DNA of 64,000 bases from Escherichia coli (GTDB lineage Bacteria > Pseudomonadota > Gammaproteobacteria > Enterobacterales > Enterobacteriaceae). The stretch is taken from the NCBI RefSeq assembly GCF_041248615.1, contig NZ_CP158427.1; one strand, written 5' to 3'. The position numbers are program-made. The stretch's first letter is position 1. Each line of letters opens with the position of its first letter. Shown here one piece after another: positions 27,001 through 30,000 of this stretch.

Positions 27001-30000
27001 CCCACCTGGACGGACAGCAGCCTTACCACCATTCTCAACCCGGAAGCCGTCATTTTTGCCAATCCGATAGCACAGGGGGCCTGCGCAGCAGATGCCATTG
27101 CCAGTGCCTTTAATATGCCTCTCGATGTTCTGTTCTGGTGTGCCGGTTCGCAGGGCAGTATGTACCCGTTCAATGGCTGGGTGAGTAATGAGTCCAGTCC
27201 GTTGCAGTCCTCCCTGCTGGTCAGTGAACGCATGGCATTCAAGCTGCACCGTCAGGGCATGATTATGGAAACCATCGGGAAAAATAACGCCGTCTGTAAT
27301 GAATATCCGTCCCCAATCCTGCCCAAAGAACGCTGGCGTTATCAGATGGTGAATATGTATCCGGACAGCGGACAGTGCCATCCGTTCGGGCGCAGTGTGA
27401 TGCGCTGGGAGACGGGAAAAAATCCGCCCAACACAAAGAAAAACTTCGGCTACCTGATGTGGCGTAAACGTAACTGTGTATTCCTGTAAATCATTTTAAT
27501 GAATAAGAGGAAATGAAAATGGCAACAATGGACAGTAAATATATTCAGCACCTCAGGAAAATAGGTGCTGTGCTGCTCAGGCTGATAAGCAGAACATTAA
27601 AATTATTTCCTTTTGGTCTTGTAATAGTGCCCGTTATATTATTTTATTTTGCACCTGACAGTTTTCTCGCTGAAATTATTCATGAATGGAAGAAGGCAGA
27701 TATATCAGAACAAGTGACACTTGTCAGATTATATCTGAAGGTGACATTTACATGTGTGTTTATGGCTGTTTTTCTCAATTATCTTTTTTCTGATGAGTTC
27801 ATGCCTGTAAATAGCAGAAAGTGAGAAATATCATGAACCGGAAAATATTTGCACTTTTTGCTCTGACAGCAGGGATGCATCTTGCTGTTCATGCTTCAGA
27901 AAATGTGAACACAACTGAAAACCGCCAGTTCCTGAAGCAGCAGGAAAATTTAAGCAGACAACTGCGAGAGAAACCTGACCATCAGCTGAAAGCCTGGGCG
28001 GAGAAACAGGTGCTGGAAAACCCCCTTCAGCGTTCAGATAACCATTTTCTGGATGAGCTGGTTCGTAAACAGCAGGCTTCGCAGGACGGGAAACCCCGGC
28101 AGGGTGCCCTGTATTTTGTGTCGTTTTCCATACCCGAAGAGGGGCTGAAAAGGATGCTGAGCGAAACCCGGCACTACGGTATTCCCGCCACGCTGCGGGG
28201 CATGGTGAACAACGACCTGAAGGCCACGGCTGACGCCGTGTTGTCCCTGGTGAAAGACGGCGCAACTGATGGTGTTCAGATCGACCCGACGCTGTTTTCA
28301 CAGTACGGCATTCGCAGCGTTCCGGCCCTGGTGGTGTTCTGCAGCCAGGGGCACGACATCATCCGGGGAAATCTGCGCGTCAGGCAGGCGCTGGAGAAAG
28401 TGGCCGCCACGGGTGACTGCCGGCAGGTGGCTCATGATTTACTGGCAGGGAAAGGAGATTCCGGGAAATGAAACGTATTTTACCTCTGATACTGGCTCTG
28501 GTTGCCGGCATGGCACAGGCTGACAGCAACAGTGATTACCGGGCCGGTTCTGATTTTGCCCGTCAGATTCAGGGGCAGGGTACAGGCAGTATTCAGAGCT
28601 TTAAGCCACAGGAGAGTATCCCCGGCTATAACGCGAATCCGGACGAGACAAAATATTACGGTGGCGTGACTGCCGGCGGGGATGGCGGCCTGAAAAATGA
28701 CGGCACCACGGAATGGGCGACCGGTGAAACCGGAAAAACCATCACAGAGTCCTTCATGAACAAGCCGAAAGACATTCTGTCACCGGATGCACCGTTCATT
28801 CAGACCGGCAGGGATGTGGTGAACCGGGCTGACAGCATTGTGGGAAACACCGGGCAGCAGTGCAGTGCGCAGGAGATTAGCAGGAGTGAATACACGAATT
28901 ACACCTGTGAGCGGGATTTACAGGTGGAGCAGTACTGCACACGAACTGCCCGTATGGAGCTGCAGGGGAGTACCACATGGGAAACCCGGACGCTGGAGTA
29001 TGAAATGAGTCAGCTACCTGCACGTGAAGTGAATGGTCAGTATGTTGTCTCCATGACCTCTCCCGTTACCGGTGAAATTGTCGATGCGCATTACAGCTGG
29101 AGTCGTACTTACCTGCAGAAGAGTGTACCTATGACAATTACAGTACTGGGAACCCCACTGAGCTGGAATGCCAAATACTCAGCAGATGCCTCATTTACAC
29201 CAGTACAGAAAACACTGACTGCCGGTGTGGCTTTTACGTCATCTCACCCCGTCCGGGTCGGGAATACAAAATTCAGACGTCATACGGCAATGAAGCTGCG
29301 TCTGGTTGTCAGGGTAAAAAAAGCCTCGTACACCCCGTATGTTGTCTGGTCTGAAAGCTGCCCGTTCAGCAAGGAGCTGGGGAAACTGACAAAAACAGAA
29401 TGTACGGAGGCTGGCGGGAACAGGACGCTGGTGAAAGACGGTCAGTCATACAGCATGTACCAGAGCTGCTGGGCATACCGGGACACGTATGTCACACAGT
29501 CAGCAGACAAGGGAACCTGTCAGACCTACACCGACAATCCGGCCTGTACCCTGGTGTCACACCAGTGCGCCTTTTACTCCGAAGAAGGTGCCTGTCTGCA
29601 TGAATATGCCACGTACTCCTGTGAGTCAAAAACATCCGGGAAAGTGATGCTCTGTGGGGGAGATGTCTTCTGCCTCGATGGCGAATGCGATAAGGCTCAG
29701 AGCGGGAAGAGTAATGATTTTGCCGAAGCTGTTTCTCAGCTGGCAGCACTGGCCGCTGCAGGTAAGGATGTTGCGGCGCTGAACGGGGTGGATGTCCGTG
29801 CTTTCACCGGTCAGGCGAAATTTTGTAAGAAGGCTGCAGCCGGATACAGCAACTGCTGTAAGGACAGCGGCTGGGGACAGGATATCGGGCTGGCCAAATG
29901 CAGCAGTGATGAAAAAGCCCTGGCTAAAGCAAAATCAAACAAACTGACCGTCAGCGTCGGGGAGTTCTGTTCGAAGAAAGTGCTGGGTGTCTGTCTGGAG

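Follow-up and report, generated by a model that had tools for sequence, protein, structure and literature searches.

Organization of the traU–trbC junction

The window analyzed here is a 64,000-nucleotide stretch of an Escherichia coli F-like plasmid of the R100/R1 type (RefSeq assembly GCF_041248615.1, contig NZ_CP158427.1), in which a small ORF lies between traU and trbC (Table 1). The + strand frame is intact from 27513 to 27824 and comprises 103 aa when counted from an upstream in-frame ATG at 27513. Because the Shine-Dalgarno-like AAGAGG is 2 nt from that ATG and 8 nt from the ATG at 27519, the latter is most likely the start, and it corresponds to the PGAP start of the R100 counterpart (101 aa, WP_000224416.1). 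The gap between the end of traU and the ORF start is 23–29 nt, and the ORF ends with TGA 8 nt 5' of the trbC ATG. A longer trbC frame opens at 27821, of which the PRK13730 alignment covers residues 5–216.

Table 1. Features at the traU–trbC junction (window coordinates)
Feature	Position	Strand	Basis or remark
traU, conserved left flank	26497..27489	+	NCBIfam PRK13737, E = 2e-221
Variable slot: spacer, ORF and trbC signal-peptide codons	27490..27898	+	right boundary approximate
Shine-Dalgarno-like AAGAGG	27506..27510	+	direct sequence reading
Small membrane-protein CDS	27519..27824	+	101 aa; ORF list
Predicted TM helix 1	27603..27656	+	residues ~31–48 (103-aa numbering); hydropathy peak 2.16
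Acidic loop and short helix, predicted periplasmic	27657..27725	+	residues ~49–71; AlphaFold2 helix 49–61
Predicted TM helix 2	27726..27788	+	residues ~72–92; hydropathy peak 1.87; AlphaFold2 helix 64–92
trbC, right flank	27833..28471	+	NCBIfam PRK13730; true start ATG 27833

The first-pass annotation had described an ORF of about 100 aa with its own Shine-Dalgarno sequence, roughly one-third G+C and well below its flanks, encoding two or three hydrophobic helices. This description was borne out: 101 codons and the AAGAGG were found, the G+C content of the ORF was 0.349 (GC3, 0.327) compared with 0.55 in traU and trbC (GC3, 0.67 and 0.62, respectively), and two hydropathy peaks and three AlphaFold2 helices were obtained. 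AT-richness sets the ORF apart from traU and trbC, but not from all genes of the operon: trbE (0.41), trbF (0.38) and the ORF at the traS position (0.41) are also low in G+C. By our own arithmetic, the chance of a 103-codon open frame at 35% G+C is about 5e-4. Because its motifs are kept in homologues of 25–60% identity, its dN/dS is below 1, and the AlphaFold2 model has a mean pLDDT of 84, the comparative evidence indicates that the ORF is a real gene, not a chance frame.

On the + strand, neither the ORF nor its immediate surroundings showed a promoter-like or terminator-like site, and the gene is therefore most likely co-transcribed with the tra operon, as judged from the sequence; we regard its Shine-Dalgarno spacing and stop-to-start geometry as fitting expression within the operon. 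traG is found 10 kb downstream of the ORF. The neighbourhood of the ORF also includes trbE (30300..30560; NCBIfam PRK13718, 160 bits), 2.5 kb downstream, and the traG–traT position is filled by a separate ORF (41084..41581, the traS position) with traT beside it. A hairpin was noted within the ORF at 27697–27737 (z = -3.2); because its outer stem falls on the codons of the conserved 'AD' and 'LYLK', we take it to be a consequence of the coding sequence. A non-coding RNA was also considered and dropped, Rfam having returned just sub-threshold eukaryotic snoRNA noise.

Predicted architecture of the product

Topology prediction from hydropathy and charges, which the first-pass annotation had suggested as a check, gave two transmembrane helices in an N-in orientation. 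Kyte-Doolittle peaks (19-residue windows) were located at residues 29–47 (2.16) and 70–88 (1.87), and the AlphaFold2 model consists of helices 3–46, 49–61 and 64–92, with pLDDT above 90 in the first. The predicted N-in topology follows from the positive-inside rule, since seven K/R residues precede TM helix 1 and the loop is acidic (D49, E54, E58, D63 and E66 versus K60 and K61). The first helix bears the family motifs LKLFPF and FYFxP, the nearly invariant W59 sits in the acidic loop, and the tail after TM helix 2 (SDEFMPVNSRK) is predicted to be cytoplasmic. Natural fusions that join the C-terminal end to a soluble protein without a signal peptide fit this placement of the tail. The product is thus modelled as an inner-membrane helical hairpin with its basic N-terminus and C-terminal tail in the cytoplasm, and its conserved acidic loop, about 22 residues long, is predicted to lie at the periplasmic face.

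A fold search with the AlphaFold2 model returned noise alone from the PDB (E > 6), and the sole return from AFDB50 was the family member of pSLT. The hairpin shape had suggested a pilin-like or holin/toxin-like product, which received no backing from the fold and family searches, and the length of the product exceeds that of type I toxins.

A narrow family of IncF and IncX transfer regions

Neither Pfam nor NCBIfam gave a match for the ORF, its 43%-identical allele or an IncX homologue, and PADLOC-DB and PHROGs (E <= 1) returned zero families for the same three proteins. A profile search matched 28 cluster representatives with E-values of 1e-41 to 1e-10. The ORF has full-length similarity to the two-TM family typified by R100 WP_000224416.1 (hereafter family A), whose members lie on the same strand as a type IV secretion operon, inside it or directly behind it. 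Across homologues of 25–60% identity the motifs LKLFPF, FYFxP[DE], W59, LxLYLK and SDxFMP are retained, and P33, F44, Y45, F46 and P48 are nearly invariant in IncF and IncX members. The searches indicate that family A is a narrow, uncharacterised protein family.

Family A occupies the traU–trbC interval in the window, R100, R1, pBSI025-KPC2, pYT1, CP027375, L019 and L024. The R100 copy is 96% identical to the window ORF at the amino acid level (a few substitutions), and it and the R1 copy are the same gene, with the same length and position; the R1 reference record carries an IS10 within it at about codon 20. The window allele was found in 1,163 PLSDB plasmids and in 824 of 5,426 complete E. 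coli genomes (~15%), always annotated as 'hypothetical protein', and 890 of 896 E. coli matches were on plasmids. More than 1,100 plasmids of six genera keep its 101-aa frame unbroken at >=95% identity, and the exact protein occurs on at least 1,000 contigs of a 15-billion-protein collection. Family A as a whole is present in about 2,000 PLSDB plasmids, versus 1,436 with an empty F-type junction; the 50,697 phage records searched held no match to the ORF. The ORF is thus no peculiarity of this plasmid: it is a standard gene of the R100/R1 lineage, already annotated as 'hypothetical' and uncharacterised. A literature search for the ORF, WP_000224416.1 or a gene 'between traU and trbC' found no description, and the R100 and R1 copies have neither a name nor a described function in the records and in the literature searched.

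IncX plasmids carry distant homologues; there the family A gene lies downstream of the type IV secretion genes, after taxB, Cag12 and TrbM, and overlaps a thermonuclease gene. It lies outside the VirB core, beside nuclease, topB, hha and hns genes, in a backbone whose G+C (0.41–0.44) is nearer to that of the ORF. Every family A context inspected was an F-type or IncX transfer region.

The traU–trbC interval as an exchange site

In plasmid F (NC_002483) traU and trbC are 8 nt apart, which confirms the canonical order given in the first-pass annotation. In F-like plasmids the site is either empty, as in F, or filled by the ORF or by alternative cassettes. The boundaries of this slot were drawn by aligning the window to F, R100 and a pKpQIL-like plasmid. 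The left edge is the traU stop codon, immediately after which identity drops; at the right, residues 1–40 of TrbC are 62% identical to F and the remainder 96%. F-type plasmids cover just 77% of the query 26700–28450. At least seven states of the slot were seen (empty, A, A+B, A+A::B, C+B, A+B+D and D). One combines the 43%-identical allele with a soluble partner protein, B; another has tandem A copies, the second fused to B, and a 259-aa A–B fusion is recurrent. In some plasmids unrelated genes fill the slot. Searches of NCBIfam, Pfam, PADLOC and PHROGs with partner B were all empty, and its AlphaFold2 model was poor (pLDDT 58). The window plasmid lacks B, and the IncX members stand alone without it.

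TraU of the window is 100% identical in amino acid sequence to TraU of R100 and of pBSI025-KPC2, whereas the alleles of the ORF downstream are 96% and 43% identical, respectively; between the window and pBSI025-KPC2, dS was 0.065 in traU, ~1.0 in the ORF and 0.51 in trbC. A divergent F-type system (TraU 66% identical) holds a family A member in the same interval. A backbone whose TrbC is 47% identical to that of the window has a member 53% identical to the ORF, along with a protein B that is 73% identical to B of an E. coli plasmid. The ORFs between traR and traC of R100 are missing from the window plasmid, indicating that slots assort independently. With alternative contents in collinear backbones, a sharp boundary and cargo common to divergent backbones, the alignments mark the traU–trbC interval as a recombination hotspot of the F-type transfer operon.

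The ORF had been proposed to be horizontally acquired cargo. A separate, AT-rich, exchanged accessory module was indeed found, but insertion here is no likelier than loss in F, which is equally plausible because a family A member is present in the system with 66%-identical TraU. The only flanking direct repeat, 9-nt exact (CCTGTAAAT) within a 12-nt near-repeat, has copies at the traU stop and near the ORF end. It was considered as an insertion scar and is treated as chance because ~0.7 such matches are expected in 600 bp.

SXT/R391 ICEs also use an F-type transfer system. Their hotspots are, like the traU–trbC slot, intergenic sites of a conserved conjugative backbone, with alternative gene sets, fixed boundaries and contents exchanged between backbones by recombination (PMC2791158). 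The traU–trbC cassettes differ in being small (0.3–1.7 kb compared with up to 29 kb in SXT/R391), in lying in the orientation of the operon and being read through with it, and in having no recognisable defence, resistance or toxin-antitoxin genes.

Selection and dispensability

The dN/dS was 0.10–0.17 among IncX members and 0.3–0.6 among F-like alleles. The window and R100 copies differ by four non-synonymous changes and one synonymous change (dN/dS ~1). As dN/dS is below 1, diversifying selection is not demonstrated, and the divergence of alleles could reflect old alleles shuffled by recombination. Frameshifted alleles occur in nature, and the second helix of the pSLT-type allele is degenerate. 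Given that F has no such gene, that 1,436 junctions are empty, that the R1 record carries an IS10 and that frameshifted alleles exist, the comparisons indicate that the ORF is not required for transfer. It may confer little, given how frequent disrupted copies are.

Interpretation and alternatives

Our preferred reading, to which we assign a probability of about 0.45, is that the ORF is a dispensable accessory gene within a recombination hotspot and has a role in plasmid conflict or protection. Its product would be made in donor cells alongside the type IV secretion machine without being a working part of it, and would be a membrane factor for plasmid conflict or self-protection, not a core pilus component. 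Candidate roles would be an allele-specific second barrier to incoming DNA, protection from pilus-dependent invaders, or interference with co-resident plasmids. In related cassettes, family A may act with the cytoplasmic partner B, anchoring it to the membrane. We count toward a conflict-type role the tandem paralogues, the A::B fusion, the diversity of alleles, the presence/absence polymorphism and, by analogy, the variable SXT/R391 hotspots, which likewise lie between genes of a conserved conjugative backbone. We count against it that dedicated exclusion genes are already present, namely the traS-position ORF and traT here and the EexN lipoprotein in IncX, and that the family and fold searches returned nothing outside family A.

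We consider it doubtful that the product is instead a minor subunit, structural or for assembly, of the F-type secretion/pilus machine, with which R100-type plasmids would fine-tune mating-pair formation or the assembly of pili. It would then resemble the non-essential inner-membrane proteins TrbE, TrbI and TrbD or the pilin chaperone TraQ. In MPF_F and MPF_T plasmids alike, family A is always found inside a type IV secretion operon or adjacent to one, its motif at the periplasmic end of TM helix 1 is conserved and it is under purifying selection, all of which suit a machine part; however, F and the 1,436 other plasmids function with an empty slot, the IncX gene is outside the VirB core, and ORF alleles swap independently of their neighbours (TraU 100% versus ORF 43%), unlike co-adapted subunits. 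TrbE of F (86 aa, two hydrophobic helices, non-essential) is similar in size class, hairpin and operon neighbourhood, but it is present in F, where family A is missing. The ORF has no PRK13718 match and no profile similarity to TrbE; the hhalign probability of 2% led us to treat the two as not homologous. Uncharacterised ORFs are known among F-type transfer genes, such as orfX1-4 of pED208, and deletion of the pED208 gene clusters with orfX1-4 left pilin accumulation unaffected (bioRxiv 10.1101/2023.12.05.570194).

It is quite unlikely that the product is an entry-exclusion or immunity protein, which in the plasmid-carrying cell would act in the recipient role to block the entry of DNA or effectors from donors with the matching allele, supplementing TraS/TraT as a second system. 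Like TraS of F-like plasmids, the ORF encodes a small inner-membrane protein from an AT-rich gene inside the tra operon, with strongly divergent plasmid-specific alleles in near-identical operons and dispensable for transfer, and some plasmids have tandem divergent copies, as in immunity-gene arrays. Yet the ORF sits between traU and trbC and not at the traG–traT position, and it shares no sequence or profile similarity with TraS (hhalign probability of 0.3% against the traS-position ORF; no NCBIfam TraS match); homology to the traS-position ORF was rejected on the hhalign result. Moreover, IncF and IncX carriers alike have canonical exclusion genes, a cognate variable determinant on the donor side was not identified, and exclusion has no obvious need for a cytoplasmic partner B. 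Decay, with the ORF a neutral hitch-hiker in a tolerant intergenic site as the membrane-anchor half of an A+B cassette whose partner was lost, also seems improbable. The window allele is alone where other cassettes pair or fuse A with B, its dN/dS relative to R100 is ~1, IS10-disrupted and frameshifted copies circulate, and the second helix of the pSLT-type allele has degenerated. Against this, a frame of 35% G+C would soon be lost in the absence of selection, but the 101-aa frame is intact throughout the six genera, and the lone IncX members without B are under strong purifying selection.

A broader form of the conflict reading is that family A, alone or with B, is an unrecognised plasmid-conflict determinant of IncF and IncX plasmids, which we consider unlikely. 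Such a factor would be produced only while the transfer operon is active, and it could inhibit fertility, protect against pilus-dependent phages or add a second, allele-specific layer of exclusion. For the classical FinV (IncX) and FinW systems we know of no identified genes, and fertility inhibition is one speculative reading for that reason. If the conflict reading is true, the traU–trbC interval would serve F-like plasmids as a hotspot for conflict genes, similar to the hotspots of SXT/R391 ICEs.

In E. coli, resistance and virulence genes are carried mainly by F-like plasmids, and the gene described here is without a name, domain or known role despite its presence in ~15% of complete genomes of this species. 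The traU–trbC interval emerges from these comparisons as a delimited site of exchange whose contents are modular (A, B, C, D and A::B fusions), and families of the slot recur in IncX plasmids. Together, the modules and their IncX recurrence provide a short list of genes with which to ask what the transfer operon does beyond the transfer of DNA.

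Gene layout and predicted product of the traU-trbC ORF

The first-pass annotation had read a separate open reading frame (ORF) between traU and trbC, and this observation was confirmed, including its frame, start coordinate and hydrophobic segments. Because AAGAGG precedes the second in-frame ATG by 8 nt, a 101-aa product starting at that ATG is most likely, and the PGAP start in the R100 copy is the same. The TGA stop of the ORF lies 8 nt from the trbC start. F (NC_002483) has the same 8-nt spacing between the traU stop and trbC, in agreement with the first-pass annotation, in which traU of F is directly followed by trbC. 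A sequence scan of the + strand found no promoter-like or terminator-like site within the ORF or next to it; for this reason, and from its spacing to trbC, the simplest reading is that the ORF is a further cistron of the long tra operon. Its G+C content was 0.349 (GC3 0.327) versus 0.55 (GC3 0.62-0.67) for traU and trbC, and by our own arithmetic the chance of an open frame this long at 35% G+C is approximately 5e-4. The outer stem of a near-palindrome inside the ORF falls on the conserved codons for AD... and ...LYLK, and part of it is retained in a 43%-identical allele; the near-palindrome is probably a by-product of coding.

Features of the window in and around the tra operon
Feature	Position	Strand	Remark
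R100 traR-traC ORFs, corresponding place	22345..22861		ORFs absent
traU	26497..27489	+	NCBIfam equivalog or subfamily model
AAGAGG	27506-27510	+	ahead of second in-frame ATG (27519)
Open frame between traU and trbC	27513..27824	+	ORF list
Near-palindrome in ORF	27697..27737		20-nt arms; -13.7 kcal/mol, z = -3.2 vs shuffles
trbC	ATG 27833, end 28471	+	NCBIfam equivalog or subfamily model
trbC stop/traN start overlap	28468..28471
traF	30523..31296
Nested insertion sequences	31348..34902		between traF and trbA
IS5-family transposase gene, split	31348..31689 + 34243..34902	+
istB (IS21 family)	31760..32509	-
istA (IS21 family)	32521..34062	-
trbA	34964..35302
traS-position ORF	41084..41581		between traG and traT; 165 aa, 0.41 G+C
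Thermonuclease gene	52999..53460		after finO

The predicted protein (A) has strongly hydrophobic 19-residue windows at residues 29-47 and 70-88 (103-aa numbering), with 7 Lys/Arg ahead of the first, an acidic connecting loop of ~22 residues and a tail ending SDEFMPVNSRK. The positive-inside rule predicts a cytoplasmic location for the N- and C-terminus and a periplasmic one for the loop. AlphaFold2 with a 15-sequence family alignment gave a confident hairpin (helices 3-46, 49-61 and 64-92; mean pLDDT 84). The protein had zero matches in Pfam, NCBIfam, PADLOC and PHROGs; Foldseek with the model found nothing in the PDB, and its sole match in AFDB50 was a family member from a Salmonella virulence plasmid. 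Kinship of family A with TrbE, or with the traS-position ORF of the same operon, was rejected, the profiles being unrelated. TraS alleles are known to be extremely divergent, and it is consistent with this that no NCBIfam model matched the traS-position ORF.

Family A is narrow: searched exhaustively with a profile, 1.84 billion cluster representatives yielded only 42 matching clusters. Members 25-60% identical to the ORF kept the motifs LKLFPF, FYFxP[DE], an invariant-like loop Trp, LxLYLK and SDxFMP. The dN/dS values were 0.10-0.17 among IncX members and 0.3-0.6 among F-like alleles, with synonymous sites near saturation in the latter. The window and R100 ORFs showed only 5 differences (4 non-synonymous), too few to be informative on selection.

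Distribution of the ORF

The ORF is no peculiarity of the window plasmid; plasmids of the R100/R1 type ordinarily carry it. R100 carries it at 96% identity. In R1 (NZ_KY749247, 1860-3208 of comparison locus L005), IS10 (ISVsa5) lies in the ORF at approximately codon 20, equivalent to window position ~27570, with the transposase gene on the opposite strand, and PGAP calls a 97-aa chimeric ORF running from the IS end into the remainder of the gene. Megablast of the 341-bp interval against PLSDB matched 1,163 plasmids, chiefly from Escherichia, Klebsiella, Shigella and Salmonella (best match at least 95% identical in 1,162). The interval was present in 824 of 5,426 complete E. coli genomes, and 890 of the 896 matching places were on plasmids. 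Family A was detected by tblastn in 2,012 PLSDB plasmids and in none of the phage records searched. A probe for the F traU-trbC junction matched 3,560 plasmids, most at the traU end only, and the empty F-type junction was found in 1,436. The ORF is already known as an annotated, uncharacterised gene: databases always name it "hypothetical protein" or, generically, "conjugative transfer protein", and the papers in the library searched included none that describes it.

The traU-trbC interval as a recombining slot

The contents of the slot (the traU-trbC interval) were sampled from plasmids taken down the similarity ranking. The slot was empty in F and a pKpQIL-like plasmid, and held A alone in R100, R1, the window and the pSLT-like plasmid pYT1 (second helix degenerate). 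It contained a 43%-identical A allele with the 173-aa soluble protein B in pBSI025-KPC2, A, B and the 59-aa protein D in pJKHS016_3, D alone in a Klebsiella plasmid, and the P-loop-like 153-aa protein C with a B homologue in NZ_CP144927. Metagenome and isolate contigs of F-like plasmids (L024-L027; L024 2590..3780; also P0050 and P0141) had two tandem family copies, the first of them free-standing and the second fused in frame to B as a 259-aa A::B protein; this fusion recurred across the sequence collection (96 blocks). The family allele of NZ_CP027375 (L014 2286..2640) carries a frameshift close to the 3' end, after which the +1 frame encodes the conserved C-terminus CSDEFLPGKRLNKNEEENNG, and another 280 bp of AT-rich non-coding DNA lies ahead of trbC.

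Between the window and pBSI025-KPC2, TraU was 100% identical (dS 0.065), A 43% (dS ~1.0) and TrbC 85% (dS 0.51). Alignability was lost at a sharp boundary directly 3' of the traU stop, and the variable segment included the TrbC signal peptide. An F-type system much further removed, with 66% identity to the window in TraU and 47% in TrbC, likewise had an A member between traU and trbC, 53% identical to the ORF; the B that follows it shares 73% identity with that of an E. coli plasmid. Cassette genes can thus resemble each other more than the surrounding backbone, which indicates that recombination exchanges them. The earlier reading of the ORF as horizontally acquired cargo is supported in the form of a horizontally exchanged accessory gene, but its absence from F may be a loss there just as well as its presence here an insertion. 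SXT/R391 ICEs also use an F-type transfer system. They have intergenic hotspots, which the behaviour of the slot closely parallels (PMC2791158).

The accessory slots of the tra operon assort independently, since the window shares the traU-trbC content of R100 and is without its 4 hypothetical ORFs of traR-traC (L010 2699..4251) and its 245-aa ORF of traT-traD. A second variable slot, trbC-traN, is empty in the window; other F-like plasmids (L003 4657..5475, L004 3871..4690, L011 4273..4692) have there a free-standing HNH endonuclease gene, a gene for a 123-aa hypothetical protein, or both. Elsewhere in the operon, an IS21-family element splits the IS5-family transposase gene; the nested elements may have a polar effect on the distal genes (traQ to traX) and might render the window plasmid transfer-deficient.

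Relatives in IncX plasmids

Homologues of A were found in approximately 50 IncX plasmids (MOB-suite IncX5 and "IncX4", MPF_T), with profile E-values down to 5e-12. They sit downstream of virB11, taxB, Cag12 and TrbM, and their stop codon adjoins or overlaps the beginning of a gene for a thermonuclease with a signal peptide (L015 9001..9809; L016 6001..6803; L006 5001..5809), followed by genes without assigned function and then topB, hha and hns. The G+C content was 0.41-0.44 for IncX backbones and 0.37-0.39 for their A genes, nearer to the F-like A alleles. This fits the idea that family A is at home in AT-richer plasmids; other genes of the window tra operon are AT-rich too. A thermonuclease with 60% identity to that of the IncX plasmids is encoded in both the window and R100, 25 kb from the ORF, and the gene table of F shows neither A nor thermonuclease. 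A 253-aa protein from a divergent F-type slot between traU and traP (L019 4551..5312) resembles, by eye only, a 257-aa IncX protein downstream of the nuclease (L006 5824..6597). Neither matched NCBIfam; the two would be a second family common to the slot of F-like plasmids and the accessory region of IncX plasmids.

Possible role of protein A

Because the highly proficient F is without it, the ORF is dispensable for transfer in that sense. Copies disrupted by an IS or a frameshift survive in natural plasmids, and A alleles are swapped independently of the adjoining machine genes. A minor role in assembly ranks second and seems rather unlikely. Classical entry exclusion or immunity, ranked third, is improbable, as traS and traT are already present, and IncX plasmids already have the EexN lipoprotein. 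Marginally less probable still is that A is the decaying remnant of an A+B module; the window plasmid has A without B. The natural A::B fusions suggest a cytoplasmic C-terminus for A and an ability of A to anchor B at the membrane.

We rank first, with a probability of approximately 0.45 for the whole statement, a donor-expressed membrane factor with a role in conflict or protection, because of the presence/absence polymorphism, the deep divergence of alleles at one fixed site, the tandem paralogues and the exchange across plasmid families. Such a factor would serve the plasmid otherwise than by pilus building.
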